Shown here: positions 3,270-53,159 of the stretch, piece by piece
Position numbering within the stretch: the first letter of the stretch is position 1
Layout: every line of letters begins with the position of its first letter
Origin: Phoronis australis
Taxonomy: Eukaryota; Animalia; Phoronida
NCBI GenBank assembly: GCA_002633005.1
Contig: NMRA01000223.1
Span: 163,710-216,868, forward strand
Direction of reading: 5' to 3'
Length of the DNA: 53,159 nt
The notes under the pieces: model-generated
Databases searched by the model: none
The model's input: the letters and a program-made list of their open reading frames with translations, nothing else
What the model was told of the DNA's origin: nothing
Translations under genes and position numbers: made by a program

Positions 3270-4302
3270 TAAGAACGCGACTTTAGTATTTGTTAGCAAG
3301 GCTAATACTGGTACGTTCGTAATACCGAAAGACGAAGTAGAAACGCTGCACTATTCAATTGAAAAGGACCATGAACAAAATAAAACCTTAGTTAAAGGCA
3401 GTGGCGTTGCTATTGAAAATCCAAGCGCTTTGACCCAGTGGATAATGCTTGTGCCCGAGTTAAGCAGGTTGCTGACTGAGTTTGAATGTCAGAACGGTTT
3501 TGAGGAGACAAGCCACCACGAAGACATTCCATACTTCCAGAACATGATCAAGAACAATGCAACTAGTTTGTATTGCGAAATATCAGTCAAGAAGAAACCA
3601 TTTCGTTAGCCAAGGTGATGCACTTATGATGAAAGATTCTGACAGGTGTAGCCATGCCATCGAACTGAGTTAAGAACAAAAATATGACAACTAAAAGCAA
3701 CGCCCTATTTGAAAAATCGCTACAAGAGCTGACTCTTTTCAATAAAAAATTGTCGAGTCTGCTGTTTTCAAAGCAGCTATCGGAGTCGAGAAGCCTAAAA
3801 CAGTGACTAAACAACGCATAGATGGCCACAGCTTATTTCATGAAATGTATTTTGTCTCGACAAGTTCTAGAAGCTAGCCTGGGTGACTGTTTATGTACTA
3901 TAATCATCCTTGACCACATTGGAAGTCTGCGATTACCTTCACAGTACCTTAAACAGACATTCCTGTATCTGTCGAAGCCAAAGTCTCTAATGGACCAGCT
4001 AATGCCCATAGCTTTTCTCGAAACGCAACTACGGCAATCAGTCAGTTCAATTAAAAGTTTGGCCTAGTGGGGACATTCTAACCTTCACACCTGCAAGGAA
4101 GTTCATATTGCAGTTGATACTTACACTGAAGCAGTTTCAAGGTCACCACAAAAGCTTCTAGAGATTAAGGTGATCGTACCAAAGATTTTCTCCAAACGCA
4201 AATGTCTCTAATCTTGAAGAATTCCTTGTGGAACTCGAAGAATAAAGAGGAATCGTTAGCACTAGATATCTCAGCATTCCCCTGTCCTTTAAAACACACA
4301 CA

Positions 4303-4345
<43 letters not shown>

Positions 4346-6437: not shown

Positions 6438-6959
6438 GAAGTTTTAAACTACCTCAATTATTTTAGTTGGTTAAACTTATGTCAAAACCAATTTCAAACT
6501 AAAGTATAGAAACACATTTCTTACAAAAAATACAATAACATTGAAGATGTTGATTGTAATGTACTATTTTTGCATTAAGCTTTAGGTCCACCGGTGCAAT
6601 TTTGGGGTCATTAAATGATAATTCTTTTTCCACGCTATGCATTTGCGCAGTGGGATGAGTTTCTTTGTTGACTGATTGCCAGGTCGGAATACAGCAGTGT
6701 CACTACGAGTTTGGTAGTTTATATAATTTCATATAAATTGGTATGGTCATCGTTACAAGGCACAGTTTTAGGGATTTGTTTATTTCAATATCAAATGACG
6801 ATTACCAGATTTTTCTGTGTCACTTGTGGCGTTTTCATTAAATTATGATTGACAATGAGCACACAGTCTCCAGGAAGCCACAAAGTGGCGCTTGATTATT
6901 TACGGTTTTAATAAGACATGGCATGCTTAAGTTGCAGTTCCAGCACTTTTAAGGGATTA

Positions 6960-7828
6960 AATGTCCAAAAACCACAGGTCAGGTAGAGAAAAATAATACA
7001 TATCCATGTCATCATGCACACAGTGTGTACAGAAATAACCTGAAAAAGAGGTGGATATTTGAAACGTACTCTGTGGATTGTTGCCTGACCTTAGCTATAA
7101 CCACCATCAAGCAACAATGGGAATATTCAGCATTGATTGAGTCCACTGTCACTAATTAACATGTTAGAAAAGAACCCGAACATTACAAATATCATTTTGA
7201 TGTACTATAAGAACACGGAACCTAAGTCAAATATGATCTCAACTATGACATCAAACATTAACTCGACTGCTGGGACGCCTACATCGGCCATCGTCCCCGT
7301 TAACATTCATCTTCGTATTGCACCGTTTTCATGCAATTTCAGTTTCAGTTGGCAGTGCAACTTACATGTACCGGCCCTAAGCCATTTCACCATGACTTTA
7401 AGTGCTCGCAAAATCGTCTCAGAAAAGATCAACCACCACTGAGTAATAAGCGTCACTTCCGTCGTGATAGATGCTTTCTACATTTCCGAAACCTTTGTGA
7501 AGCCTAGCGTCACATGCTGTTTGTGTTTTCCTTGCAGAGAAAAAACCCGGGTGCAAAGTTGACGTGAAAGGAATTAAGTACTATGGTGAAGTTGACCACG
7601 CAAAGACGGGACAACGGTGCAGAGTATGGGATTCACTGGAAGTTCAGAAACACATGTCCAAAAGGAAACGTTTAATTAGATCATTCAAGGGATGGTCCAG
7701 AAAAGTGCAACTTTCAAATTATTGTCGAAATCCGGACTACTCGGAGGTTGGTCCTTGGTGTTATATAGAAGATGAGAATGTACCTTCGTGGCGTGTTTGT
7801 GACATCGAAATGTGTGACGGTAAGTACT
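6960..7828 (+). repeat. Duplicated intron+kringle exon unit, copy 1 (paralogous to ~13765-14581)
   Basis: Shared intronic blocks CACAGGTCA, ATCCATGTCA, AAGAGGTGGATA..TGAAACGTACTCT, AAGATCAACCACCACT, GATGCTTTCTA..CCGAAACCT, then the exon. Confidence 0.85.
7538..7819 (+). CDS. Kringle-domain exon 1 (internal, phase 1-1) of a kringle-containing extracellular protein
   Basis: Acceptor TTTTCCTTGCAG ends at 7537; donor GTAAGT starts at 7820. 282 bp open: KKPGCKVDVKGIKYYG...TGQRCRVW...NYCRNPD...GPWCY...WRVCDIEMCD, with six kringle cysteines. Confidence 0.93.
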
Positions 7829-9074
7829 GTTCAGCGACTGGATTACTAGACCTCGTCCGATGTGCCTCACGGTTAACACAGCAGCAGCCCCAGAAACTGC
7901 ATCTGTTAACAAACAGAATGCGTAGAACGGGACTATGGTGGAACACCACACAACTACAGGTGGTTACATTTGCCACTGACTTCACCTGTCTTTAAATCCA
8001 ATCAGTACTGATTAAGTCAGGATGTTGATGGTTCTGCATGTAAACGGAGATCTGAAGTGTCTGCACACAGTTATACTGGAAACTTGATCGAGGTGGTTGG
8101 AATCTTAAATCTAACAAAATCGTCTATGTCATTTTTTGAAAATTCCAAAATACGTACTTAAAGTTTACATTATTCTATTCTGTACACAAATAATTGCTTG
8201 TATATGTAAATCCCGGAGGTGAATTGCAGTTGGTAAACATTCGAGTTGAAAAACTGATCGAAAGAAAGTTTGCACACTATCTACACCTTGGTTTCTCCAC
8301 GACAAAACAACTTAGGACTGCTATAAATATCAAGATTCAAGAGTAATTTCCCTATAATACTTCCACAATTCAACTAACTATAAAAAGCGAATATCAGTTA
8401 TCACATTAATCATAATGAAATGAGACCTGAAAACGTATTTCTCGACCCAAAATTTCGTCTTAGTTGTATCTTCGCGATGTAAAATTAATGAGGACTTGAC
8501 TATTTTTTTATTTATTGCGATATTTGAAATGAGAGTGGCCTCTTCAGTGATACCATTGCTTTTCAAGATGGCCCTCAAGAACAAACATAAAACAGTAATA
8601 TAATACAATGAGGTAATGAAACAACAATTAAATATACGAAACAAAAATACAATTAAAACAAGTTGAGAATTAGGACAAGAAATAAATGAAGGAAAATGGT
8701 GAAAATTTAACTAACATAGAGGAAATAGATAAAGAGAAGACTCTAAATAGTAAATACGTAACCCCACGGCTAGCTGTGCCTGCGGCATTACGTGGTGTAA
8801 TTGCCTACACAAGAAAACATAAGTGAACGTTTTAACTATTAAAGTTGACATATATTTCTCGCAGTTCATGTTTTTTCATTCAAATTTAATGGGATCATTT
8901 TTTATACAAAAAAGACACGTGGTTATCAAGTCAGTGAGAGCGGGAAATTTGGAATTCGATTTTGAAAGCCTCGGCCCTGCCATATACAAGGGGACAGATA
9001 TCAATTGCTCGAGTACACATTGTATGCTGCAGAGGTTATATAAACATAAGTCTCAAGGCACTAGAGAGTAAATG

Positions 9075-10680: not shown

Positions 10681-13350
10681 CGTGGATTCCCACGCATATT
10701 TTACTTTTACCCACTACTGAAAGATACATGTACATATAAGGGAAGTTACTCATCAAAAGTACACAGCCCGCGTCTGTAGTAAACTCATCACGAACGCATC
10801 GCTCAGCCACGGAAAGCGGTTGTCCGATACCGTGGTTAGCCAGGTGACCAGTAGCATAACCGGTGAAGAAATACTCGACCAGTCTGCATTTTTAAATCAT
10901 TCTTGGAAATTCTATGTTTTACTTTTGAAAACTTTCTTTACTTGACTGCCAACATCTTGGAATGACATTCCCCCTCTGAACTTTTCTCCGTATGTTCTTA
11001 CACTTTACTGTATGGGACTACATTACTTTCAGCTTTGGCTCACTATTTCTAAGTCCTAGACAGTTTCTTACTACCTTGCCTGCAAAGTATAGCAACTGGA
11101 TTACTAGACTTCGTGGGGGCTGCCTCCGGTCTGGCAACGAGTGACCGTAATCGGACACAGACCGGAGAGTGAGGCGTTTATCGGACGTGGCAAGTGGCGT
11201 GAGCGTAAGCGTGACCTTACAGTGCTCGGTAGGCGTGAACAAAGCGCAAACACCCCGTGAGCCCGGCCTGAGTTTCCCTACCTTCGTTACAACATTAATT
11301 GCTATCCTCAATGATTTAGTGCGACTAGAACAATGTACAGGGTGCTGTCAAATTATCAATAACTGGCATTAAGTCAGTGACTCTATATTTACTGCTAACG
11401 AAACAACATATTTAGCAAAAATATGTCCAGAATAATTGATTGGTTGAATGAAATACTTTACATTAATGGGTTTTATTATTTTACATTTTTTTGTTATATT
11501 TGATGAAAAGTTTACACGTGCATTGTTTCTAATTCACTTTCATCGAAGTAGATCAATGTATTATCCTTTTTAACGAGAAGCTCTACTACCCAAGTAACCC
11601 GTACGTAGGTTTATTTTAGTGAACTAAATAACTATTTTACTCTCTGGTGCCTGCCTTAAAACTCGGGGATAAATTAAACCTCGTCAGGATACAATTTTTA
11701 CACCTGCAATTGATACCTGACACTTGGTATACATGTACATGTACAGTGTGTAACAGACTTATGCCTTCAAAGTAAAAAATCAAATTTGCCAATTTCACCG
11801 ATATTGTAACCGCGTGTTTGCATCCGTATAAAAATTATCCCAAAACGTTGACTGAAAAACACACCGACTGCGAGAAACGTATGACAAACTTCAACAGTGA
11901 AAATAAAAAACACGTCTTACCTACAAACAAACTTTTTCTGTGTAGGCCATTACATCCGCTTGTATTGCCGAGCCGTTAGGTGTTGCCTAAATTTTGTATT
12001 CTAGTCCACATGATTCGGTCATCTATAAAATAAACCAAGGCGAGGTTCTCGGGATAGAAACACGTTATTTGGTTCCATTTCATTTAAATTGATGTGATCA
12101 CTGATGCTTATTTATTTTAGTGGTAGGTGAATAATTCACTAAAGCTACTCCATCATAAGACAATTTAAAAGATTTTAATTTTTAACAAATTGCACATTCC
12201 GTTCCACTCATAATTCCAAATCAAATCTGTGTTAGGGAGTGCATCCGGGGTTTCAAAGGTATCAAATCTTTGAACAGTGTATACTCGGTCATTTTGCCCA
12301 CATCCAGCGTGTCAATTTATTGTGTGAAGCTTGTAATCTAGTTGGAGCTTTGTAGCCAATCCTTCAGAAGTTACTTAACATCATTAGTTTTCTCTATAAG
12401 TCATCTTGAACCTCAAGTATTTCTATTTTTATGATTGTTTTGCACTCTTACTGCATGCAGAATGAACCACAATTATTATATATTTCGTGACAAGACTAAA
12501 TTATCACAACTATTAACGTTCCGCGTAATGTACAGATACTGAATTTCAGCTGCAATTACTTTTGCGTCTGGCTTTATCTTTATCGCATGCCCAACATGCC
12601 TGGATAAATCATGGTATAAAGTGTATGCAGGCTTTTCTCTCAACGGATTGTTCCAAAACCCTCTGAACTCCACACACAATCGACCCACAACCCCCAACCC
12701 AAGACCTGTGGCAATAGATGTTATTTGCGCTTTTTACACATTTCAAAATCATAATGCCTCGCCGAATGACTTTGCCCTAATACTTATCTAACGCAAATCT
12801 GCTCTGGCTCAACTCTCTTGGTTAAAAACAGAAAGTGGTGTAAGGGCATGCCCTGAATCTCCTATATCGAATTGTGAGCGTCCTATCTGGAACAGTTTCA
12901 CTAGCTGCTACCAATGGCCCTGTTCTACTAAACTTAGGGAGAGGGAGCACATTACCGTGAACAAACATATATTCACATGTTTATTATTTCATTTGGTGTT
13001 GTACACTTGTTTACAACATGCTCCATGTTTTCACTTTCCAATTAGGTAACTTGCAGTAAAATAACGTTTAACATAAGTTAACTATTTAACATGCGATTGG
13101 CCAGCTTGACCAATTATCAACAAAACTGTGTACATTCACTTCTCTCGTTGCAGGCATCAACGTCAACGTCTTGAAGTAATGAACTCTCAATGTATCCAAA
13201 GTCAGGGGAATTCATTGACGTGTAACCAGCTGTGTGTCATTACTCCATACTCCTTTTCCACAAAGTCTTTGTGTTGACATATGCAATTTCAGGGTCCGTT
13301 TCGTAAAAGTGATAAGAAACAGAGAAACGTTATTACTCCCCCATTTCAGA

Positions 13351-13806
13351 ATTGCTATGGACAAAACGATTACTACTGTTCTGCCGAAAGTAAAAAGAAT
13401 GCGCGTGAGGCAAATTTAATTATTTGCATCTGTAAGTTGCGGTTCCGGCCCTTAACCCCCAAAAGCACAGGTCAAGTGAAGAAACATGGTATACATNCCA
13501 CCAGAAACAATGCCCTAACAAATCAGCAGTTACCAATGGTCTATCGGTGACACATCCAGACAACCAAGCCAGAGCACCATGGTTCAAATCCTGATAACAG
13601 TAACTTTTTTTAGCAACATTAATAATTTCTAAAATATATAAAATACACTACTATCACAATTGCTGTGGACAAAACGATTACTACTGTTCTGCCGAAAGTA
13701 AAAAGAATGCGCGTGAGGCAAATTTAATTATTTGCATCTGTAAGTTGCGGTTCCGGCCCTTAACCCCCAAAAGCACAGGTCAAGTGAAGAAACATGGTAT
13801 ACATCC
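13351..13806 (+). repeat. ~147-bp near-identical direct repeat (13351-13496 and ~13659-13806) on either side of an N
   Basis: ATTGCT[A/G]TGGACAAAACG...GGTATACAT occurs twice with one visible mismatch; single N at 13497. Confidence 0.9.
13525..13615 (+). mobile_element. tRNA-derived SINE-like head
   Basis: A-box-like TGGTCTATCGG and B-box GGTTCAAATCC, followed by a T-run. Confidence 0.4.
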
Positions 13807-14290
13807 ATGTCACCGTGTAATAGATTACCTGGCAACAAAGGATTTACAGAAATAGCTTAAACAAGAGGTGGATAGCTGAAACGTACTCTTTGGATATTAA
13901 CCTGACCTCACTAATAACCACCCCAAACATTCAGCATTGTTTTATTGCACTCTCACTGATTAACATGTTATTAAAAATTTCGAACATTAATAACATTGTT
14001 TTCACGTACATGCAAGAAAAGATCCCGATACATTCGTCAAATATTATCACAAATATGACACGCCAGCATTCCAGTTATCATGCGTATTAGTATTGCGCCA
14101 TTTTCCCGCAATCTCACTTTCAGCTGACAGTGTAAGTCACCGGCCGTAGGCCATTTAACTATGTCTTAAAATGCTTTCATAATCGAGGCTGCAAGATCAA
14201 CCACCACTAGTAAGCGCGCCTTAACTGATAGTCGATGCTTTCTAGATTACCGAAACCTCTGTCAAATACTAAAGCTTGTTTGGTTTGCAG

Positions 14291-14572
14291 AAACTATCCT
14301 CGGGTGCAAAAATGATGTTAAAGGACTTGACTATAACGGAAAGGGTAACTACGCCAACACGGGGCAAAGCTGCAGGATATGGGACACTGATGACGTTGTG
14401 AACTACATGATAAAAAAAAGACGTCTTTTTGCGTCATATATGAATTGGCCAAGAAACGTGCAACGTTCGAACTTTTGTAGAAATCCGGACCATTGGGAAG
14501 GTGGTCCTTGGTGTTTCATAGAAGATGAACCTGTACCTTCGTGGCGTGCTTGTGACATCAAACTGTGTAATG
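14291..14572 (+). CDS. Kringle-domain exon 2 (internal, phase 1-1)
   Basis: Acceptor TTTGCAG ends at 14290; donor GTAAGT starts at 14573. 282 bp open: TILGCKNDVKGLDYNG...TGQSCRIW...NFCRNPD...GPWCF...WRACDIKLCN; about 52/93 aa identical to exon 1 by manual count. Confidence 0.93.
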
Positions 14573-14740
14573 GTAAGTACTAGCACGCTACAAAAGCAGA
14601 TTTTAAAGCTGAGTAGCTGTGCAGTCTGATTGCATGTACATCAAAAACTTCATTTGGTATTTTTCTGCTGAGGGAGATTCCTATACATATCCGACTTAAA
14701 CATACTATTGAATGATACGTGAAGATACACTGTAGTGCAC

Positions 14741-15205
14741 TTATTGGGGACAAATAAAACAAAAAGAATAATAAATATTTTAAGTTGTGTTGGCAATTTC
14801 AGGGTCACAGCTCTACAAATAAATACTTCACAGACGGAACCAGATGGTTTCCTTAATTACAAGAGATAACACACACATTCCCGATACCCAAAGTGTAATT
14901 GAGTATCGGATACTAAGTGGCACAGGTTAGCATAGTACCAGATGGGTACACAATACCAAATGGGTATTGGCCGATTGCCTACCAACTGGGTCGAGCAAAG
15001 CGGCAAATTCAATAACAAGTACCAAGTGGGTACAAACTGCCAAATGGGCAAATATCATATAAAGTACCAAGTGGGTACACCAAACAGCCAACTGGGTTAT
15101 AACAACCTGCAAAGCAGGTTCCGGACAAGCTGAGTGAGCAGACCAACCGGAGTGATAAAAAGAGATATTGTAAGGAACGTGGTGTTGTGGCTCAGTATGT
15201 GCCCA
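14741..15205. repeat. Repeat A copy 1 (~460 bp), with internal TACCAANTGGGTA motifs
   Basis: Highly similar to 15660-16137. Confidence 0.92.
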
Positions 15206-15452
15206 GGGCTGTGACCGGGGTGGAGAGAAGGAAGCTGCAGTAATGGATGCTCAAGTACATGTCTGGTCGCTAGCCAATGACGTCGGTTCTTCCCTGACGG
15301 TAACACGCTCCGGGCTTGAAGAAGGTGCCAGCAGCGGCTGTAAAAAAACAATAACCAACAGCAGATTTTATTCGGCAAAAGGGATGGAGCGTGGGAAAGG
15401 TAGAAAACGTTGACATAAATTTTTGTGGTACCCCGGGTAGGGAGGGCAGGAG

Positions 15453-15663
15453 AGGTATAAACTTATCTAAATAGGAAAACTTACGAGTGAATGTACTGTT
15501 GCTTGAGGCTGGGCCAACAGGAAGCTGGAGAGAAAGAACAAACAGCGCAACCATCGGACTTGGTAGGAACTAACCACGGGTTGGATATGAAGCATGAAGG
15601 GTTGTATAACGGTATATGGCCAAATAATAGGATTTATGTCAGAGAGCCATCAATCTCATTATT
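15453..15663. repeat. Repeat C copy 1 (~210 bp)
   Basis: Highly similar to 22591-22806 (AGGAAAACTTACGAGTGAATGTACTG...ATCTCATTAT). Confidence 0.92.
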
Positions 15664-16137
15664 CGGGACAACTAAAACAACAAGAATAACATATATTTTA
15701 AGTTGTGTTGGCAATTTCAGGGTCACAGCTCTACAAATAAATGTTTCACAGAAGGAACAAGATGTGTTCCTTAATTACAAGAGATAACACACACATTTCC
15801 GATACCCAAAGTGTAATTGAGTATCAGATACTGAGTGAGTGGCACAGGTTAGCTTAGTACCAAATGGGAACATAATACCAAATGGGTATTGGCCGATTGC
15901 CTACCAACTGGGTCGAGCAAAGCGGCAAATTCAATAACAAGTACCAACTAGGTACAAACTGCCAAATGGGCAAATATCATATAAAGTACCAAGTGGGTAC
16001 ACCAAACAGCCAACTGGGCTATAACAACCTGCAAAGCAGGGCAAAGCAGGTTCCGGACAACCGGAGTGAGCAAACCAGCCGGAGTGATAAAAAGAGACAT
16101 TGTAAGGAACGTGGTGTTGTGGCTCAGTATATGCCAC
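15660..16137. repeat. Repeat A copy 2
   Basis: Matches 14741-15205 and abuts repeat C at a shared TTAT. Confidence 0.92.
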
Positions 16138-41378: not shown

Positions 41379-41540
41379 TTGGCGTAAAACTTGAAAACTT
41401 GGAAATGCCTGCTTTTCTTCAAATTAAAAAATCGTGACTATTTGCCACAAAATATGCTTAATTCATGAGCGGATTTAGAAATACAAATTAGTCTACTTTT
41501 CGACATAATTCAAACGAATCATACTGCTGTTTTTGAAAAA

Positions 41541-43363
41541 TTGTTTGATGAATTTTCTGAAGAACTACGCCGTCTGTGTGAAGACATCATGAGAGGAGCT
41601 ATGATAAGAACAAGAGCGCGCTGGATTGAGCATGGGGAAAAGCCGTCAAAATATTTTTCTAATCTTGAAAAGAGAAACTATATTAATAAAAGTATTACCA
41701 AATTAATTATGCCCAATGGGGAAACGGTTACAGACCAATCCCAGTTACTCTTGGAGGCATCAACTTTCTATAAAATGTTGTACCAAAATAGAGACGATGT
41801 CACTGAGAATGTCAACTTGGATGTTCTAATTGATGATAATGTTAAAAAGTTAAGTGATATAGAGAGCTCTTTGCTCGATGGACCAATTTCTACAACTGAA
41901 GCCTTTTCGGTAGTTAAGTTCATGAAAAACAATAAATCGCCAGGCCCGGACGGCTTCTCAGCTGAATTTTACAAATGTTTATGGACTGGTCTTTCAGTAT
42001 TTTAGTTCGTTCGTTTAATGATAGTTTTCCTAAAGGTAGATTTCCTGTAAGTCAAAATCAAGGGGTGATTTCTCTTCTGCCTAAGGGTAAAAAACCGAGA
42101 GAGTACCTGACAAACTGGCGTCCTATCTCATTACTCCATACCAGTTATAAGATTTTGTCAGGTTGTCTCGCGCAAAGATTGAAACTGATAATTAGTTCAT
42201 TAGTTCATGAAAATCAGAGGGGTTTTATCAAGGGTAGACATATAGGGGAAAACACTAGGAATATTTATGATTTGATCCATTATACAGAAGAAATTAACAT
42301 TCCAGGCCTTTTAGTACTTGTTGACTTTAAGAAGGCCTTTGATTCTACTTCGTGGAATTTCATTTATAAAGTTCTCAAATTCTTTAATGGTAGTGAAAAT
42401 TTTATTGATTGGATTCATCTTCTAAATGAGGGTTCACGTCTTTCCGTTATACAACATAATTTCACGTCAGAATATTTTGCGATTGGGCGCGGGTGTCGAC
42501 AGGGGGATCCGATTTCTCCATATCTTTCCATACTGTGCGCAGAGATCATGGCAATTATGGTCCGTCAGAATTCGAAAATTAATTCATTTGTATTGGGAGC
42601 AGATCTCATAAAATAATGCAGTATGCCCATGATAGAGTCTTAACTCTTAATGGGTCCAGCCACTCTCTGAATGAAACCCTGAATCTTTTAGACCAATTTT
42701 TCAAGTGTTCTGGAAAAAACTAATTTAGAAAAAACAGAATGTGTATGCACAGGGTCTATGAAATACAGTGACATAAGGTTATGCCCTGAGAGAGAGTTAC
42801 TTTGGAGAAAAAAATATTTCACCACACTTGGTATTAAATTTAGTCTTGAGCTGCCTGAAATAACCACATTAAATTATGAAGAAAAGATCAGTGAAATTGA
42901 AGGTTGTCTCAGGAAGTGGGCCAAAAGAATTTTGACTCCCCTGGGAAAAATAACGGTAATTAAATCATTTACGATTTCCAAGCTAACTCATTTGTTTATT
43001 ACATTAAAGAATTTTTCAGTAAATTTCCTATAAAAAGAGAAAATATTATATATGAACCTTTGTGGTACAACTCTAATATTTTGGCAGGTAAAAGACATTT
43101 ATACTATAGCAGGTGGTATGAGAAAAATATTTTATTTATTTATGACTTTTTAGACTCTAATGGGACGTTTATGAATTATGAAACTTTCTGTAACGTACAT
43201 GATTTGTCTCCACCCTTCACTCAATACCTTGGTCTTAGGAGTATATTACCATCATATCTAAAAGATAGTAAAGGTCACGTCTTTCAAGTTACTTTACCTA
43301 ATTTTCCACAGGTATTCTCTAACTCCCTATTTTGTCAAAAAACAAATAAATTTATCTGTGATA
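41541..43363 (+). mobile_element. Tx1/L1-clade LINE ORF2 remnant (reverse transcriptase)
   Basis: GAMIRTRARWIEHGEKPSKYFSNLEKR, KSPGPDGFSAEFYK, NWRPISLL, DFKKAFDS, GCRQGDPISPYL, degenerate QYAHD, LTPLGKITVIKS; frameshifted. Confidence 0.93.
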
Positions 43364-43502
43364 CATGGGTGGCGCAACATAGGGGTGGGGGCTATAACCC
43401 CCAATTTTTCAGTGATACCCCGCACGTGGTCTTTAGGCGGTGTACCACAGTGAGGCTGAGGGGGCTTTATCCCCCACTTTCTTCAGTGCTGCGCTGCCCG
43501 TG
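43364..43502. mobile_element. ~140-bp MITE interrupting the Tx1 remnant
   Basis: Imperfect TIRs CATGGGTGGCGCAACA versus reverse complement CACGGGCAGCGCAGCA. Confidence 0.65.
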
Positions 43503-44599
43503 GTCAAGTTTCCCGCTGCGACCATTTTTGTAGTTGATGCAGGCAGTAGTGAGGTACTTCGTTTTTCTCATTTACCACAATGCCTTACACTAGTGAAGAA
43601 CGTTTTACGGTAACTGTGAGACACATTTGTAATTAAGTTAAGATGACTTCGAGATAGCCAGCTCACGTGTAGTGCTTATACCCGAAACCGAATTTAATTT
43701 TCTTTCCTTTTAATAGTTTTAGATCAAGTCAGGATTCGCTGTCAAGTTATTCAATAGGGAACAACACACGCAAAGTGCAGTGGAAAAATGAACTCTGAGT
43801 TCGTGCCCACGGTACCGCAGACTTTGGTGTGTAGCGTTAAGCTTTATCTACAAATAACGCTGTTCCTAATGGTGGGAGAACGTGAGTATGCGATTACAGT
43901 GACGTGAAGTTTCGCAGAAAGTTATGAGTTATTGACTTTCTACATTCTTCGGCTTTGTTTCGTGATTTCGTTCTCGTTCCCTCCTGGCCGTTATATCCAC
44001 CATAGTTTCCTTGTCACCCACTGCTGTAGTACACATCTCCTCCTACACCCTCCTCTAACATATCCTGTGTCTTAACATCACAGTCAGCCAACAGTCGGAG
44101 TAGTGCTATGGGGTTTGCTTCAAACCAAAACAGAATAAAATTTGATGACGCCTCGGTCTTTGATCATAAATCATTAGGGCCGGAATGACAACTTCCAAGT
44201 TCAGATGCTGAAAGAGCCCTGCAATCGGTTGCTCCAGTATTGCCTCTAAGTACGGAATACAGGAATTAGTTCGCTTAGTTAAAAAGACTAAATTTCATAT
44301 AGAGCTGCTATCGCCGAAATTGTCATCCTAACTAGTTTCCATGTTTGATGCAGCATAGAGAAAAATCCCGAAAAGGGCTATTTCGAGAGGGAAATTACAA
44401 TGCCGCAATTAGTACTACAGGGTAAATTTTACCGAAGGGTGGGATATTTTGATGGTGATGCTGTATCGCGCGGACAACCCACAAAACCTGGAGCACCAGT
44501 CAAGAGCGGGGCAATTGGAAGATAAGCTGTCGCAACATAACGTATTGGGTAGGGTTATCTTACAGGGTAAACTGATTCCGCTCACCTACATTCTTTTAA

Positions 44600-44800
44600 A
44601 TTTCTGCAAGCCTAGATTTGTTATTGTTAGACCAGGGAGCGGGTTCAGTAAAACCAAAATTGAAGAAGTATCCGAGTCATCTGTGTGTGCTGAGCTGGTT
44701 TAACCGTTTAAAGAAACTATAGAAGTGCTTCAATGGACATGCGATCATGTGGGCATCAACAGCACCACACAATTGGAGATAGAATCGGTGCAGACGTACA
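44600..44800 (+). pseudogene. Possible SGNH-esterase remnant of a LINE ORF1
   Basis: VIVRPGSG...HVGINS resembles the PGA...HVGTN blocks; weak. Confidence 0.25.
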
Positions 44801-46343
44801 TTTCCTGGTAGCTCTGTCCTCAATCAATTGAGTGTAAAAAGCTTCCCAGAGAACAGATTACAGACAAAGTCGATGTCATGGAGAAAAAGTGACATCAAAA
44901 TAAGTCAACGTAAGCAGCAAACTTGGAGAGACATTGAGCGCAGGCTGGCTGCACAGTTCCGGCAATCAGAAAGACGAAACAATGAACTGCTAAAGGAAAG
45001 CCAAACACTAAGAAGTCTGCAAAGAAAACCGGTGGGGGAACAAAGGAGATGGAACTGAAGTCTCCAAAATCAGGCGGTTCTTGACTTGATCGGAGATGAT
45101 GGCACCAACAGTCCCGCACGACAATGACGCCCTGCTTGTTCTGTCATATTCTTTTGTGTCCAAAGGACTGCCTGCAACTGATGAGTGTCGGGTTTTGAAC
45201 GTGCAGCAATCTGGTCAGCCTCATACGACGAAGTCTACAAAAATCCAGGTGCTAGACGGAAAGCAAATTCCAATGCACCCAAAGGGCCCTTTACCAGGGA
45301 CAAGCCGCGAAAAGAATAGACTGCAGGCCCTGTCTCCACCTTTGAGTCCCGCGTGTGCTTTCACTACACCGATTACACGGCGGGCAACAATAAAAAATCC
45401 CCTCTATATCCCCTACCCAGATAAACTTGGTCCGCCACGAAGCGAACGAGCCCTATAATTGCGCTTGACAATTCATTTCGGTGCTCGGGAAATAATCCCG
45501 ACAGAGATGCAAATTTCCGAGGTAGGCAATATTTTTCTGATATGAACCTATGTCCCATTCATGCCAGGTGCTTTTGAAGAATCACTTGCCGGAATACGTT
45601 AAGGAATACGGAAATTTATTGCATGAAAATAAAATTTTCGGATCCGCTCAGACGCGTAAATATTTTACGCAGTTTTCCTGGACAAATCCGCTTTATCTGG
45701 ACATGTATGATCCGAACGTCATTAAATAAACGATTAGAAACGACTTTTTTAATTAAATAACGTTTTGTACGGCGTGTTTTTTGCAAGTCGACGGATTAAT
45801 GTATTTAATAAATGGTACTCAATTGGTCCTTTATTTGTAAAAAATATGGAATTAAATTGATTAATTATAAACTAATCATAGAATGAAATTAACCATGAAG
45901 GTGTTTAGGTTTCGGTTGTTGCAGCCAATAATTCATGATTAAATCTATTATTTTTGTGACCTGAACATCGAAAATTGACGTAATGTGTCATTTTTCCTGG
46001 ATTCGTGAAACATTTACAACCGAGCAGACCACTTCAACACTCTTTGGCTTTCAATCAAATTGATATATATCTTCTATATTGTTTGTGTTTCATGACGTGC
46101 TAATTATAGCTACGTTGTACCTAAAGAAATCCTGACAATGACGCAAAGAACACCGCAGGAGGATCGAAATTTGTGACCCCCAGAGAAAGGGGTTTTCTTT
46201 TGAAGGAAAACAAACTACAAAGAGAAATGAGTAAATTAACTTAACACTGGTTTTACCGTTTTACCACGATTTTTTAAATTTGACGAAGGCATCATACATA
46301 TATCGGTGCTTATAAATATAAAAATAATTATATATATATATAA

Positions 46344-46519
46344 AACTTACTTTAAACACTTGATGGAACTGCGCCCAACCGTCATCTTCAGTTGGTCTCC
46401 TACTGTCCTTAATGGTTTCGTCCCTAAACCAAGACCATCTCTAGTAGGCGGGACAGCAGAGTTGACCAGGCTCTGCCTGACGGTTGTTGATGGTATTGCT
46501 GTTAGTGCTTCATCCATAT
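46344..46519 (-). repeat. 3' terminal direct repeat of the Hero element
   Basis: Colinear with 50026-50201 (offset 3682), with about ten substitutions. Confidence 0.97.
46376..46486 (-). ncRNA. Candidate permuted/pseudoknotted hammerhead ribozyme (3' copy)
   Basis: Minus strand: CAACCGTCA-GGCAGAG..CTCTGCT-GTCCC-g-CCTACT-agag-ATGGT-C-TTGGT-tta-GGGAC-GAA-ACCAT-taaggac-AGTAGG-ag-ACCAA-CTGAAGA-TGACGGTTG; six complementary helices around an intact core. Confidence 0.7.
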
Positions 46520-49500
46520 CCAACATGATGCCTGTTCAGCTTCGGTGGCCACATCGCGTAGAAGAACCTTGTTTCCTGTCGCAGAGACGCCCAGAGACCT
46601 TGCCATAGCAGTAACCGAGCTGGCCGGAAAACCATGGCAACCAACCTCCACAGAAAAACTCCAACACCTCTAGCCGTTAACGTGGCAGTCACTCCTCAGA
46701 TCAGTATATTTCAGGTTCTTCCGCTCATGAGCCTCTTCTACCATACTCTCCCACGCAATGGTGAGCTCGATCAGGATGATCTGGTGGGAACTGTCCGAAT
46801 AAAGAATAAAGTCAGGGCGCTGGGTAGTCTGGACAATGTGCTGTGGGAAGGATGACTGGTGACCTGCAAGATCAACCCACAATTTCCAGTCGTTTGCTGT
46901 GTGAAGGATGCCTTTTTGCGCTGGTGTCTTCTTCTTACTTGCCTCATCGCCACTTCTTCTGAAACTGATAAATTCGATCCGGTGGCTTCTTGACTTTGGT
47001 TTACTCTTGACTTCGTCAACCAACACCCTTGCGAAAACTTTCAGTACCTGTTTGTGTCGGTAGGTGTACTTTCCTGATGCCAAAGACGCGCTGCAAGATG
47101 ACAGAATGTGTTCTAAAGAACATCTGCGTACACACTGAATACAGCTCGGGTTGTCAGTGAACCTCAAATAGCAAGGTTGCTGGGAGTAGGCAGTACGTCA
47201 TAAACAGATCTGATGAGAAACTTTGCTTTCAAAGGCGACATCTTCCACAAGTCCGCCCACTTTATTTCCCTTTGCAAGACTTTGTCCCACTTCGTCCACG
47301 CCCCCTGCTGACCCATCTGAACTGCTCGGGCATACCTTCCTTCGTTCTCTGACAATCTAACTTCTCTGATTATTCTGTCTCTGTCTGGTTTTTAAGTCTC
47401 TCCCTTGCTGGATTCCCGGTCTTGTATCCCAGTCCTTGCCTACCTTGGCAAGCACTTCATATTAGTTGCTTGTGCCTCAGCCGGCTTTCTGCTTCGCTGA
47501 TTGCCGACGTGGTGGACCACTTACTGCCGGTACGTGACTGGGTGATGCAACCACTGATAGCCTGGTCAGATGTATGCCGCAGAGTGATACTGGCTCGCAC
47601 TTTGGTAACTTTATATTCCTCCACCACAGATGAGACCGGTAGAACGAGTTTCGATGACTTGCTGAATGATGCAGGTAGACCAAGCCACCTTCGAATGAAC
47701 CGGCTCGCTGTTCTTTCCATTTCCTCAGCTGAAGACGATGTGACGTCGTAGATTAACAGTGGTCACATAAGCTTCGGGAGCAAGATGAACTGGTAGCACC
47801 AAAGCTTGAATCTTCCGGGTATGCCGTCTTTGTCGATCTTCTCAAGCCAAGCCTTGAGCTGGGCTTTCACATCCTTGACACGGGATGTGTCTCGTAGGCT
47901 GCTATCATAGTACTTGCCAAGGCACTTGACTGGTTGTTCACTTATTGTTGGAATTCTGCAACCTGCTATCGAAAACGTCTGTCTCTTGAGCAACACGCCT
48001 CTGTTGATAATTAGTGATCTGGACTTCTCTGCCTTGAATGACAAACAGGCCCATTTAGTGAGCTCTTCTAGGCAACGGAGAATTGTTCTGGCTCCCACTG
48101 GTGACACTGTCACAATTGTAATGTCGTCAACAAAAGCTCTACATGACGGCTGTCTGACTTCATCTAGCTTGGGACCTCTTCGTTCGGAGTGGGCTGTCTT
48201 CAGCTGGACATTCATTGCCATGATAAACAGGATGACTGAAATGGTACAGCCCGTCATAACTCCTTTTTCAAGGTGTTGCCACTTCGTAGTGAAGTTGCCG
48301 ACCGTGAAACTCATCAAACAGGAGCTATAGTATGACTTCACTATACTCTAGACTTTCTCAGGAATGTGGTAGATGTCCATGGGACGATAAACTGATACAT
48401 GTGGTACCGAGCCGTACGCATTTGCCATGTCGAGCCACACCATAGACAGATTCTTCTTGCCCTTCTTCGCTCGGTGTATGAGTTCACTTATGATAGAATT
48501 ATGTTCCAGGCATCCAGAAAAGACTGGTACCCCGCCTTTCTGTGAAGATGTGTCAATATACTTGTTCTTGATCATGAAGTCTGTCATTCTGCCGGATAGG
48601 ATTGCTAAGTAGATCTTTCCTTCCACGCTAAGCAGTGAAATTGGTCGAAACTTGCTAATCTGCTTCGAGCCTTCTTCTTTCGGAACATAAACCCCTTCAG
48701 CTCGCCCGCACTGGGCTGGAACTACGCCCTTCCTCCAGAGGATCTTAAACAGCTTCCAGAGCCTTTTCTCAACTTGGGACACATCTTATAGACCATGTAG
48801 GAAATTCTACTTGGACCAGGGGCTGACCCCGATCGGGCTTTCTTCACAGTGCTATCCACTTCTGACTTTTTAATGTCCCCCAGATCAAAACCTTCGTCTG
48901 GTAGATCTTCAGCCTCTTGACCCGGAAAGTCGCCAAGGGGAGTATCTTTCAACTCATCGCTGTGAATTTTGGCAAGGTGCTTCTCCAACACTGCCCGGGT
49001 GCACGTAAGTGTTCCGCTTTTGCTCTTGCCTAAAGCCCTGAAGCATACTGATAGGGGTTCTTAATGAATTTCTCTCTCTGCCTTGACCGCTTCTTCCTAT
49101 TTTGTGCACCTCGTTAAGCTTTGCGGAGGGACAATAGTCGCTTGCGGGCCTCAGATGTCAGGTGAGTTATTCCTGCTTTTTCGTGCTCAGCTGCACTCTT
49201 CCACAGGCGACGGAGTTCTCTAAGCTCTCTGCGGATAGTTGCTATTTCCCGTTGTCGTCTGTTTGGTCCTCGTGGGTTTGATGTTTCCTTTCTTTTCTCT
49301 ACTGTTCCAAAGCGGTCCACACTGACTTGGTAAACAATCCTAGTCATAGCCTCAATCTTTGTCTCAGCTGGACCTCGAAGAGTGACACGTAAGATGCTAT
49401 CCAGATCATCGTCTAAGGCTGACCACGCCTTCTTATCAGCTGCTGGTGGCCACTTGATTCGATCCTTCTTTGCAGTATCTGGTGGGCCTGCTGAACTGGC

Positions 49501-49812
49501 TGGAACTGGATTCTGAAATACTTCAGCTTCTACTACTAATGCTTCCATCCGATGCGTAGCTGGGAGGTCTTCTGCACTGTGGTTTGAGACCTGGCTCAAT
49601 CCCTCGCCCGTCTCACTCGACGTGGCGCCCAAGCGTTGCCTTGCGACCTGACGTAAGCACTTAATCTTTCCTTGGTGGATCTTCAACCCTCTTAAATTCT
49701 TTAGAATCTTTCCACACACACAGGTTCTTGATGCTAAATCGGTGTTCGTAATCGTAGTCCTATTCGGTCCGGTCGTTGCCGTTGGAGGTCTGTCGTTGGA
49801 CTCTTCTTGCAT
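46502..49812 (-). pseudogene. Hero ORF (ZnF-RT-CCHC-RLE), disrupted by frameshifts and stops
   Basis: Consecutive minus ORF fragments 49114-49812, 48722-48991, 48348-48782, 47763-48341, 47457-47720, 47164-47355, 46670-47167; ends ...EAEQASCWIWMKH* at 46502. Confidence 0.9.
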
Positions 49813-49868
49813 CCTCCCTCTCTGAGAGTCCTGAGGTTGTCTTTCTGGTAATTTGGATGTAGCAATAT

Positions 49869-49991
49869 GGATGGGTGTGTCCTCGCGAACACTTCAAACT
49901 GACAGCTAATCCGAGCTGAACCCGATGCTGTCTTTCCACGCTGTCATCAGTCTCTCCCGATGTCCCTTGTCTTTCCAAGTGTCACCCATCC
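49869..49991 (-). ncRNA. Structured 5' UTR element of Hero with twin UGGAAAGACA motifs
   Basis: Nested complements GGATGGGTG/CACCCATCC, ACACTT/AAGTGT and TGACAGC/GCTGTCA; TGGAAAGACA twice on minus. Confidence 0.5.
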
Positions 49992-50025
49992 TATTCATGG
50001 AAGTCACGGCTTTGCCGATAACAAG

Positions 50026-50197
50026 AACTTACTTTAAACACTTGACGGAACTGTGCTCAACCGTCATCTTCAGTTGGTCTCCTACTGTCCTTAATGGTTT
50101 CGTCCCTAAACCAAGACCATCTCTAGTAGGCGGGACAACAGAGTTGATCAGGCTCTGCCTGAGAGTTGTTGATGGTATTGCTGTTGGTGCTTCATCC

Positions 50198-50201
<4 letters not shown>
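50026..50201 (-). repeat. 5' terminal direct repeat of the Hero element
   Basis: Copy of 46344-46519, including the last codons of the ORF. Confidence 0.97.
50058..50168 (-). ncRNA. Candidate permuted/pseudoknotted hammerhead ribozyme (5' copy)
   Basis: Core and inner helices identical to the 3' copy; two mismatches in the outer 9-bp helix. Confidence 0.65.
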
Positions 50202-50228
<27 letters not shown>

Positions 50229-50243
50229 CGTGTGTGTGTGTGT

Positions 50244-50280
<37 letters not shown>

Positions 50281-50283
50281 TGT
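50198..50283. repeat. Compound (TA)n(TG)n microsatellite
   Basis: Directly visible. Confidence 0.95.
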
Positions 50284-52420
50284 AAATTACCACATTAAGC
50301 CAAAATTCAATTGTTATAGAAAGAAAGTAGAACTGGAACATGTGCATAACGACATTGTAAAGTTGGAAGAGGATGGATTTTTTTCAAACAAATCCTGACA
50401 TCCGTGCCCAGCTAAGAGCGGAAGGCACTAAGTGTCGTAGTAATGATTGTCAACGCACTCTACCACGTCGTCTTACTGATGCTTCCAAACCTTTGAAAAA
50501 GAACAAAATATTGTAATTCGTCAAGCTGATACATGTGAGTTTAATCAATATGTAATTCTGGAGAGCAGTGATTATTTTGACAATTTTACCCAGTTAACAA
50601 GCGTTACCAGTAAGTTTGAGTCTGTTAGTGTAACGACCATACTTGATTTAAAAAGGGATCTCAACTGCCATAACAAGACGGTGAATAGAGAAGCCAGTGA
50701 GAAGATCTTTAATGAGATCGATGGTGATTTCTGTGAAGGATATTTTTATTGCAACCCTAATACGCCTAAATTTAATAATTCAATGAGACTTGTCATCTTT
50801 CAAGTATTAACACCTACATATTAAGTGTATAAAGTTATTGATCAGATTATAAAGCCGTTTATTCACAGTCAGTATAGTATCAAGTCACGTGATGATTTCC
50901 TTGATATTTTGCGTACAAGTGTACCTATTACTGGCTGCCAACCAATGTCACTGGATGCAGAGTCGTTATTCACCAATGTCCCAGTACCTGAAACCATAGA
51001 TATCATTATTTACAATGTCTATAATTATCAAAATTTGAAACCTCCCGAAATTCCTAAGGACATACTTAAAGAAATGCTATTAACTTATACTACGAAGGTG
51101 CTGTTTCGACATGTAAATGGTAAACTATTTTGCAGAAAGATGGTGTTACTATGGGTTCCCCACTAGGCCAAAGGTCACTGAATTTTATATGTCAGAAGTT
51201 GAAAAACGAGTTAAAACTAACAATGACCACATTCTTACATGTATGTATGTTCGATATGTTGATGATATTTTTGTCTATAGTAATTTTGATGAAATGGTAA
51301 TCGTTTAAGACTGTGCTTGAGGAACATTCAGTATTGAAATATCTGTGAATGATAATATACCTTTTCAAGATATACTGATATGTACTGTAACTCAGACACA
51401 AGATTCGTCACATCAGTTTATCACAAGCCTACTGACAAAGGTATTTTTCTCCATGTTGATAGTGAGAGTCCTGAGCGTTATAAGATAGCTGTTTTAGTCA
51501 ATCTCTTAAAGAGAGATCTCACTAATTTGTTAGACTGAAACCTGTTCATTAGTGAAGTCTAACATGTAAAACAACTTCTAATAAATAATGGTGACACAAA
51601 TTAATTTGTGGATAAGCATATTAACCAGTTTATCTCAAAAAATGAACAACATTATCATGTACAATCATTTACTGGTAATGTTAACAAACTGTTCTACAAA
51701 AACTGTGTGTCCAGAAGTTATGTACAAGATAAACAAGTCCTAAAGAACATAATCTATAATAATGTAAGAGTTGTTAGTCCTAATGACAAACTAGATGTAA
51801 TTATTTATTACAAGAATATGAAGACCTCTAATTTAGTGATGAGAAACAATATTAGTCTTGAGAAGGTCCGCAGTGTTGCTGGATGTAATGTTGTTCATGA
51901 GTTTACTTGTCCCTTGTTGGAATGTTTTTAGTCCTCATCAGAAACAAAATTACATTGGGCACACAGTTTGTTCCTTGTCACGACGACTGTCAATGCATAT
52001 ATAAAACCGTTTCATAAAAGACCATTTCAATACGTTCATGGTTCCAAGATAACTCGTCAGCAGATTGCCGTCAGTGCAGTCATTAGATACATTAAAAATG
52101 ATGTACACAGGTTACGAATATTAGAGTCGCATCCAATAATGTTTGAAAAGTCCAGTTTAAATGAGCAGCTACATGTAGCTGGAACTCGAAGGAGTCTATC
52201 GATATTTAGGTAGATTATGATGCACAGCAACGTATGTATAATTATGTTTTTATCGTCATAGTTGCGCATGCTAACTACACGTGTTATAACGAACTTCTGA
52301 TGTGCGTTTCACTGTGAACTAGTTATTTAAATACTAGCCTCAAGATGAGATATGTGTCTCGAAATATCGCTTTTTAAATTATGTTACCAAATGATGTCGT
52401 TTGGATTCTTATTCTTCTGT
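50284..52420 (+). mobile_element. Penelope-like retroelement (RT + GIY-YIG), decayed
   Basis: VIRQAD, SLDAESLFTNVPVPETI, DGVTMGSPLGP, YVRYVDDIF, HKPTD.G, LINNG, NVVHEFTCP..C...YIG, LRILES.....SLNEQ; hammerhead-like motif in the tail. Confidence 0.92.
52336..52371 (+). ncRNA. Minimal type I hammerhead-like motif in Penelope tail (variant core CUCAAGA)
   Basis: AGC-CTCAAGA-T-GAGAT atgt GTCTC-GAAATAT-C-GCT: stems I and II plus palindromic ATAT stem III. Confidence 0.65.
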
Positions 52421-52548
52421 TGTGATATTTAGACGAGATCTCTATTTAGATAGTTCAAAAGAACTGAAATTAAACTAGTAAAAACAGATCAAAGTCGTGT
52501 CTTCAATGAAATATGTATACGAGAAAGATCACTGCCAAATAATAGTGA

Positions 52549-52553
52549 TATAT

Positions 52554-52600
<47 letters not shown>

Positions 52601-52607
52601 ACATGTA

Positions 52608-52639
<32 letters not shown>

Positions 52640-52668
52640 TGTTAGGTGTATATGCAGCATTTCTATAA

Positions 52669-52705
<37 letters not shown>
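52549..52705. repeat. (TA)n, (TG)n and (CA)n microsatellite cluster
   Basis: Directly visible. Confidence 0.95.
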
Positions 52706-52706
<1 letters not shown>

Positions 52707-53159
52707 GAACATCAAAATTAACGTTTATATGAACAGTTCCTGCATCTCTAACTTAAAAAAACTTCCTTGAGTCGGTTTTGAATGAGTAAAAGTCTTGAAA
52801 ATTTGTCCTGCTATGTGAAATTCTGATCCAATTTTTGAAGTAAGTGTCTTCATAATATTGGAAAAAGTTCACTCTCGCTCTACACGCCTTTCAGCTACAC
52901 CGTTGAACACATACATATTGCGCGATTCTCGAGTCACACATCCGGAACACTGTTAACCCAAGTTCACTGTGATATATATTTATTGAAGGATACCCAGAAC
53001 ATACAAAGAAATAATAACAAACCCAGAAACCGCGAAGCATTATATCTGGGTTGTAAACAATTCATAAATGAAACTTATATACATAGAGGTATACACAATT
53101 AAGTAGTATCTAAAATAAGTATTCCAATACTTAGACATGCTATTACAGATATATAAAAA

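Follow-up and report, generated by a model that had tools for sequence, protein, structure and literature searches.

A hammerhead-like fold in the terminal repeats of a HERO-type retrotransposon of Phoronis australis, and a possible circular RNA template

How can a retrotransposon without long terminal repeats (a non-LTR element) come to be bounded by direct repeats that resemble those of an LTR element? The question is raised by a locus of the phoronid Phoronis australis, in a stretch of 53,159 nucleotides (contig NMRA01000223.1, positions 163,710 to 216,868) to which we refer as the window. The minus strand at 46344–50201 carries a decayed HERO-type non-LTR retrotransposon with a restriction-like endonuclease (RLE). 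It consists of one 3682-nt unit, preceded by 176 nt that repeat the element's own 3' end. Each copy of the 3' end contains a predicted fold with the core letters of the hammerhead ribozyme, which may connect the redundancy to a circular RNA.

The element and its terminal repeats

The direct repeats, at 46344–46519 and 50026–50201, are 176 bp each and lie 3682 bp apart, as a first-pass annotation of the sequence had described them, and agree at 168 of 176 positions without gaps (blastn E-value between the repeats 2e-77; apart from itself, the element has no other match in the window). The upstream, or 5', repeat (50026–50201, minus strand) comprises the last codons of the open reading frame (ORF), starting with IWMKH, the ribozyme-like fold and the 3' tail. 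At 50026/50025 it is joined to the unique 5' untranslated region (UTR) with neither a spacer nor poly(A). Hence it is a head-to-tail copy of the 3' end, and the annotation was correct on this point as well. The first four letters of the repeat (ATAT) are ambiguous, since they also fit the (TA)n flank, and the repeat length is thus 172–176 bp. The downstream repeat (46344–46519, minus strand) is the true 3' end of the element; the 3' ends of other copies map there within 2 nt. The outer flanks are a (TA)n(CA)n microsatellite on the 5' side (50202–50284) and (TA)n on the 3' side (46328–46343), so that no target-site duplication can be resolved. The eight differences between the repeats are private changes, about three in one copy and about five in the other.

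The junction at 50025–50026 (minus strand), common to the relatives, is followed by a unique region at 49894–50025 (minus strand) with repeated GTGAC..GGA(A/G)AGAC motifs, also conserved across relatives. At the UTR start, 49935–50010 on the same strand, there are three to five such repeats, conserved in 12 of 12 aligned spacers (among L001–L061). An LTR retrotransposon was considered and rejected: the repeat ends are not TG/CA, the length of the 5' repeat varies among relatives, and there is no integrase family match.

The single ORF (46472–50001, minus strand) encodes an N-terminal CCHC finger, a reverse transcriptase (RT), a further CCHC motif and a PD-(D/E)xK-type endonuclease, as judged by Pfam RVT_1 matches in the ORF pieces and by the motifs CxxC..HILSSC and RPD..IELT..K in the translation. 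Compared to its closest relative, P0001, it has several in-frame stops and four frame changes, with five covered frame segments. The TAA codon after IWMKH (46504–46502) is private to this copy: another base is found at 46504 in all DNA contig depth and in nearly all RNA reads. The upstream copy reads 12 codons further, to a TGA in a hairpin loop (50150–50148), and P0001 ends at the same place.

A search with the RT piece yielded 427 long relatives, and the best 120 of the 427 include many from fish, bivalves and lancelets, with 46–66% identity. The Tetraodon protein AAN12398.1/Q7T1J8 and its cluster mate BAC82599.1, which we take to be Zebulon and HEROTn, are 46–47% identical to the element over the RT and RLE pieces. 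The best matches among solved structures are the R2 proteins R2Tg and R2Bm (E-value 1e-46), in agreement with the R2-group RLE identity proposed in the annotation. The arrangement characteristic of the HERO clade, in which a single ORF encodes RT and, after it, CCHC and RLE, is present. HERO elements have no strict target sequence; here, too, the 3' flanks of 14 contigs agree only at about 50%, and the window copy sits in (TA)n. The element is probably of the HERO type within the R2-group RLE non-LTR elements, judging by pairwise identity to Tetraodon proteins whose names we presume. A Penelope-like element was rejected, as no GIY-YIG endonuclease was matched by Pfam in the ORF pieces or in the full-length relatives. 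The R2 clade proper was rejected as well, since neither an rRNA match, as expected for a 28S ribosomal DNA (rDNA) target, nor a match to a hepatitis delta virus (HDV)-like ribozyme is found by Rfam in 44000–53159 at E≤1.

The junction and the ends in related copies

Copies were gathered from Logan contigs and raw reads of the organism, and relatives from metagenome contigs, where a profile of 30 relatives identified 78 loci. In 11 of these, an ORF end, a spacer of 420–570 nt and an ORF start follow each other head to tail. The GAAA and CUGAnGA blocks of the fold are situated directly upstream of the 5'-UTR motif in 17 of the 20 loci having that motif (not counted are the window copy, three duplicates and L064, whose match is inside the ORF), and the distance from the predicted cut to the UTR motif is 99–134 nt in all 12 loci where it was measured. 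Hence the redundancy derives from the element, as the annotation had suggested, and the junction is shared across the family; varying junctions containing microsatellite, named there as the sign of two adjacent insertions, do not occur in the loci examined.

The 5' ends are diverse. In two loci, L005 and L051, the copy begins at the junction, next to host flank, and is of unit length (L051 holds two copies back to back, 1–2940 on the minus strand and 4006–7299 on the plus strand, about 1 kb apart). In L047 the contig start is too near, but 37 nt of its own tail are present. One family with 94–97% identity and true flanks has three different 5' boundaries: that of L015 is inside the cut by 1 nt, and L038 and L035 extend upstream of it by 324 nt and about 1160 nt, respectively. 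Starts of contigs in the vicinity of the cut (L006, L007, L020, L025) were not considered as 5' ends.

The 3' end is uniform. In the DNA contigs of the organism, at least 14 in X2 and at least 14 in X4 (one sample) exit the repeat at 50024–50027 into unrelated flanks, and all mapped 3' ends are downstream of the cut. Among the contig ends listed, none leaves the 5' UTR up to 50019. The DNA depth of the 5' UTR is 527 up to this position, compared to 40–60 in the single-copy flank, these values being summed contig depth, not copy number; a further depth peak at 50038–50064 likely reflects contig overlap at branch points. At 50026–50060 (minus strand), as in many relatives, among them the tails of L001, L018, L024 and L042, the element ends with a small terminal hairpin followed by 8–15 nt (GCAGT...ACTGTAT). 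This hairpin may mark the priming site.

Taken together, the exits at 50024–50027 place the 3' end at a constant 89 nt past the cut, the junction recurs in the family, and the varying 5' boundaries correspond to an overshoot of anything from none to 1.1 kb. In the window copy the insert reaches 87 nt upstream of the cut (with C17 counted) and 89 nt downstream, within the 85–90 nt anticipated in the annotation. Its description of the redundancy as centred on the ribozyme site applies to this copy and not to the family, since the upstream arm varies among relatives and only the downstream arm is fixed. The overshoot is kept across relatives that are about 45–65% identical in protein, whereas plain linear copying can only shrink it, and so something seems to rebuild it.

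Two independent insertions, with a short 5'-truncated copy inserted, by self-targeting or by chance, precisely where a full copy has its 5' start, would also give a head-to-tail pair. Short 3' fragments are indeed very abundant in the organism, the repeats of the window differ at eight sites, and one locus, L004, joins two different subfamilies at the usual junction. However, 17 of 20 loci have this junction in identical, spacer-free form, the distance from the cut to the UTR motif lies in a narrow range, the 3' flanks elsewhere show no relation to the 5' UTR, and the division of the eight differences into about three and five private changes is what is expected from ageing after a single event. 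We consider independent insertions very improbable.

Architecture of the fold

The fold is predicted at 50058–50168 in the 5' copy and at 46376–46486 in the 3' copy (both on the minus strand), and in each it features the core letters and six helices; a complete ribozyme-like fold at both ends, with predicted cleavage, is thus what the annotation had anticipated. On the minus strand of the 5' copy, the upstream strands are helix e (50168–50160), hairpin f (50159–50137), the 5' strand of stem II (50136–50132), helix b (50130–50125) and the GA of a putative kink-turn (50123–50122). Around the cut, the 5' strand of stem III (50121–50116) is followed by C17 (50115), the 5' strand of stem I (50114–50110), the 3' strand of stem II (50106–50102) and GAA(A) (50101–50098). 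Further downstream are the 3' strand of stem III (50098–50093), b' (50086–50081), the 3' strand of stem I (50078–50074), CUGAAGA (50073–50067) and e' (50066–50058). Helix e of the 5' copy has one mismatch and one wobble, both private; in the 3' copy the six helices are intact, with 38 of 38 pairs formed.

By analogy to the hammerhead core, cleavage is predicted after GUC, that is, at 50114–50115 in the 5' copy and at 46432–46433 in the 3' copy. The two sites named in the annotation, 50115 and 46433, are exactly the C17 positions of the fold. Cuts at both sites would free a unit of 3682 nt.

The strand order is e, hairpin f, II (5'), b, III (5'), NUH, I (5'), a short linker, II (3'), GAAA, III (3'), b', I (3'), CUGAnGA, e'. 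All hammerhead core letters (CUGAnGA, GAAA, NUH, G10.1–C11.1, U16.1–A15.1) are present, and the aligned spacers of the relatives contain invariant CGAAAC and CUGAnGA, in the reversed order. The blocks follow each other in the order S, G, C, with a short linker between stems I and II and a helix mediating the I/II interaction, which are the features of a type-SGC hammerhead. However, the stem II strand is situated upstream of the cut, separated from CUGAnGA, and helix e together with hairpin f bridges the gap. Since no unpaired letters intervene between e, f and stem II, these would form, together with the sheared pairs of the core, a perfect four-way junction. The canonical SGC pairing, in which the letters after CUGAnGA pair with stem II, was rejected: its first pair forms in none of 21 sequences, the whole helix is paired at 46.7%, which equals chance, and a second count gave 1 of 30. 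The HDV-like, twister, pistol and type I, II and III hammerhead ribozymes did not fit by eye when compared to their consensus. Rfam yields no ribozyme match here at E≤1, and plain minimum free energy folding misses the pseudoknots of the fold.

Conservation of the fold

For the search of further instances, we used a descriptor that required CUGAnGA, GAA, NUH and the first four pairs of stems I–III, while helices b, e and f and the identity of the G10.1–C11.1 pair were not required. In 312 kb it produced 37 matches, all on the strand of the element, and none on the other strand. A match was found at 32 of the 47 ORF ends with enough downstream DNA. The 15 misses are eleven cases in which the motif, inspected by eye, is damaged, one cut off, and three loci without the motif, L039, L075 and L078. 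No fold can be recognised after the ORF of these three, which are more distant relatives (39–44% best identity), so that the ribozyme may be confined to a part of the clade.

A structure-blind MAFFT alignment of 21 of the 37 matches has 95.8% of 787 cells paired over the six helices. None of 500 shuffles reaches this percentage, and controls in which the helices were slid yield 34–46%. Double-sided changes occur at 29 of 38 pairs, with 228 double-change cells compared to 66 in the shuffles. Pairing in stems I, II and III amounts to 95%, 99% and 100%, with five, three and three pairs, respectively, changed on both sides. Among the helices that the descriptor did not require, b is paired at 93.5%, with a mean length of 6.3 (4.3 in shuffled sequences), e at 94.6%, with double changes at all nine of its pairs, and hairpin f at 93.9%.

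The core letters are invariant. After removal of 7 of the 37 matches as truncated or more than 90% similar, 30 loci remained for counts of the stem II pair and of the palindrome described below. The 10.1–11.1 pair is GC in 28 of these and GU in two, its G coming from upstream of the cut; U16.1–A15.1 is kept in 30 of 30, and position 17 is never G, as the descriptor demands. It is very likely that the conserved fold is real, and likely, although somewhat less so, that it cleaves, the latter by analogy to the hammerhead core.

The alternative of a non-catalytic structure derived from a hammerhead and used in protein binding or packaging would agree with the interruption of block C and with the lack of RNA ends at the cut in the reads analysed below. 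At that, it does not account for catalytic-core letters and a NUH triplet being kept while the helices turn over freely, and we give it hardly any credence.

In a kink-turn, two helices are separated by a 3-nt bulge, which tandem G.A / A.G pairs follow. Such a bulge with tandem GA/GA separates stem III from helix b in 23 of the 31 matches, the window included, that remained after six of the 37 had been dropped as duplicates, a count that has no chance control. The predicted kink-turn would allow b to fold back along the stack of stems II and III, judging by this sequence pattern.

At the tip of hairpin f there is a palindromic hexamer, TGATCA in the window (50145–50150, minus strand), which is a predicted kissing or dimerization signal and whose TGA is the likely stop codon of the family. 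A palindromic hexamer occupies this position in 22 of 30 loci, the expectation being 4.3 and two control windows giving 4 and 2 of 30; three mis-anchored loci (L046, L050, L057) were counted as misses. Six different hexamers are used, TGATCA in 12 loci, TGGCCA in six and four others once each. The outer pair of the palindrome could be an extension of the stem, whereas the inner four letters cannot. In co-folding of the 5' hairpin of the window, the dimer is favoured by 10.6 kcal/mol, a value reached by 1.3% of loop shuffles.

A possible mechanism

Direct repeats, a shared junction, a 3' end fixed 89 nt downstream of the cut, a covarying fold and a variable overshoot are observed. The best single account of them, which we favour with slightly more confidence than doubt, is a circular template, that is, cleavage, ring closure and more-than-unit copying; we infer all steps from cleavage onward. 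The fold would cleave after GUC in a read-through transcript, at both repeats, yielding the 3682-nt unit. The upstream half of the 3' copy would then pair with the downstream half of the 5' copy, perhaps aided by kissing of the f loops, and the ends would be ligated into a ring by the ribozyme or a host ligase. As all mapped 3' ends are downstream of the cut, a doubly cut linear RNA would lack the sequence of the priming end. After two cuts the 89-nt piece would be at the 5' end of the unit, and in the ring it would lie just before the junction. The element protein would start target-primed reverse transcription internally, at the junction 89 nt past the ligated cut. Copying would cross the cut, the ORF and the junction, and would stop anywhere from the junction, giving unit length, to more than 1 kb beyond it, giving a partial tandem. 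An overshoot of at least 54 nt past the cut would rebuild a whole 5' ribozyme; that of the window copy is 87 nt.

Priming at the junction combined with copying of a ring would thus explain the fixed 3' end, the exact letters at the cut, the unit copies L005 and L051, and the overshoots of the window, L038 and L035. RNA that had been cut and not yet closed would give L015. Moreover, the 5' ribozyme would be renewed by copying of a ring, whereas under plain linear copying it can only be worn away.

Several observations weigh against this account. We know of no RLE protein for which internal priming on a ring has been demonstrated. Many of the relatives are assembler-collapsed contigs, which prove the junction but not the genomic layout, and just one of about six flanked 5' ends is at the cut. 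The step in DNA depth at the cut that would be expected from common cut-to-end fragments is not seen, the depth falling gradually. In RNA (three raw-read libraries, X5–X7, 18–19% of each, with 151-nt reads and unspecified library selection) the depth of the junction and the 5' UTR is 0–1.3, compared to 10–25 in the repeat, and the reads at the cut show no dip, no pile of ends and no joint. Most RNA reads come from other, decayed copies, with little full-length element RNA in these libraries, and in reads of this length a ligated ring is indistinguishable from uncut RNA. In L004 (3423–3917), two copies with just 71% identity follow each other head to tail across the usual junction, and each has a self-consistent fold of its own; this requires a jump between molecules, insertion at the 5' start or chimeric assembly, and is not explained by a one-molecule ring. 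Finally, CUGAnGA is not set apart from stem II in any hammerhead described in the accessible text of PMC10085705, and hence the fold could be catalytically dead.

The same RNA libraries contain a separate signal at 48412–49039, where in X5 and X6 one strand has a depth of 180–260 and loose ends are fixed at 48626/48629 and at 49003. Probably, a host transcript carries a piece of another copy of the element.

The RNA reads without a dip at the cut would be expected if the template were uncut read-through RNA from tandem master arrays, the partial tandems being ordinary 5'-truncated copies of a linear transcript longer than the unit; the overshoot lengths do resemble ordinary 5' truncation. The 3' ribozyme would be held inactive, perhaps by ribosomes or the protein on e and f, which overlap the ORF end, while the 5' one would cut sometimes. 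A stop codon is situated within e or f in 18 of 27 loci, and therefore ribosomes would enter the 3' copy but not the 5' copy. However, the renewal of tandem masters in every lineage is left without an account, and so is the conservation of a cut-competent core where cutting would remove the priming end. Such read-through seems unlikely to us as the main source of the redundancy.

Another linear alternative is suggested by one DNA contig of the organism, with a join exactly at the cut (50114 to 46451), 18 nt lost upstream and two extra letters. This join hints at RNA ends at the cut in vivo. It is a single contig, noticed post hoc, with a probability of about 2% by chance (a rough value, from 11 joints), and this, too, limits the support for a ring. 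Three joints going back 3683/3664 were not counted as tandem junctions; two of them are 3' ends spanning both repeats, since the short side ends at 50025. A linear cut monomer could be copied by template jumping: synthesis would start 89 nt from the 5' end, run off at the cut and jump to a 3' end, either of that RNA or of a different one, similar to retroviral strong-stop transfer, and a second jump would give the overshoot. The RT of R2 is known for end-to-end jumping with added letters, which is consistent with the small loss and the extra letters in the join; the 5' end of L015 at the cut and the hetero-tandem L004 also agree with jumping. On the other hand, a jump at the cut would be needed in each insertion, yet both window copies and the remaining 35 matches have intact letters across it, with no indel there at a share of 15% or more. 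Template jumping, hence, appears rather improbable as the general route.

Returning to the ring, its most specific form is that a clade of autonomous, protein-coding RLE elements, widespread in fish and marine invertebrates, uses for its replication a 3.7-kb circular RNA made by a four-way kink-turn hammerhead split between A9 and G10.1, the two copies of one transcript meeting by way of kissing loops for strand swap and ligation, with priming within the ring. We propose this tentatively, doubt here being somewhat greater than confidence.

Relation to known systems

Type-SGC hammerheads (HRIMA-1 and variants) have been described and validated by Eckert et al. 2023 (PMC10085705); in its accessible text, the permutation scheme assumes that CUGAnGA is inseparable from its stem II strand, and, a single GCS candidate aside, no SGC hammerhead is reported from any known organism's genome. 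The present fold resembles the type-SGC ones, as presented there, in the order of cut site, GAAA and CUGAnGA, in the link of about 3 nt between stems I and II, in the extra helix b tying I and II, and in the full core. It differs in that the stem II strand is upstream of the cut and not after CUGAnGA, with a four-way junction formed by e and f, in that stem III and b are joined by a kink-turn pattern, and in that the host is animal retrotransposon DNA. If the fold cleaves, it does not belong to the six hammerhead permutations that had been considered possible, since it breaks up a block which the 2023 scheme took to be unbreakable, and it would be a non-circularly permuted hammerhead in animal genomes. 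Its core wiring order was not found in the literature searched. The topology of the fold is the more novel part of the locus, compared to the terminal redundancy.

Indeed, the redundancy itself is probably not new for the clade. A Tetraodon non-LTR element "with tandem structure", likely a relative, was published in 2003 (Bouneau et al.), and the suggestion of the annotation that such redundancy is new for an R2-group RLE element is overstated. With the HERO-clade Tetraodon elements the present element shares a single ORF with RLE and the lack of a fixed target. The structure of the 2003 element is reportedly a partial tandem array. The fold offers a testable cause for this unexplained tandem structure of the clade. 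Neither a hammerhead or other ribozyme nor a circular intermediate of the HERO clade came up in the literature searched, which mostly did not extend to subscription papers.

The closest parallel to the preferred account comes from Penelope-like elements, for which a circle with more-than-unit copying has been proposed as well (PMC4209133). According to the available text of that paper, they have direct repeats with a hammerhead around one ORF and palindromic loops linked to dimer formation. They differ by a GIY-YIG endonuclease, a telomerase-like RT and type I or minimal hammerheads, not the knotted four-way form. The present element would be a second, independent route from a non-LTR element to LTR-like redundancy.

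R2 has in common with it an RLE, target-primed copying and a self-cleaving ribozyme in the RNA, the latter being predicted here. However, the ribozyme of R2 is HDV-like and 5', and the target is 28S rDNA, whereas the present element has a hammerhead where the ORF ends, upstream of the priming end, and varying targets. If true, priming by an R2-group protein inside a circular RNA would matter for tools of RNA-templated gene insertion. Retrozymes, as described in the accessible parts of PMC4918200 and PMC7229834, also have tandem hammerheads releasing a unit that circularises, as proposed here. They are small and non-coding, unlike the 3.7-kb unit encoding its own RT and endonuclease.

Other features of the window

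Broken RT-like fragments adjoin the element at 50480–52213 (plus strand, with the motif MSLDAESLFTNVP); they have no Pfam match in the four pieces scanned and presumably are of the Penelope type. Another decayed non-LTR element, with an RVT_1 match, is located at 41469–43530 (plus strand), and by its motifs we take it to be L1/Tx1-like. Further local direct repeats of 150–480 bp with 91–99% identity are at 14741–16135, 15453–15662/22591–22806 and 13346–13804. Two segments encoding kringle domains, at 6965–7992 and 13766–14581 (plus strand), form a local duplication and are 67% identical.

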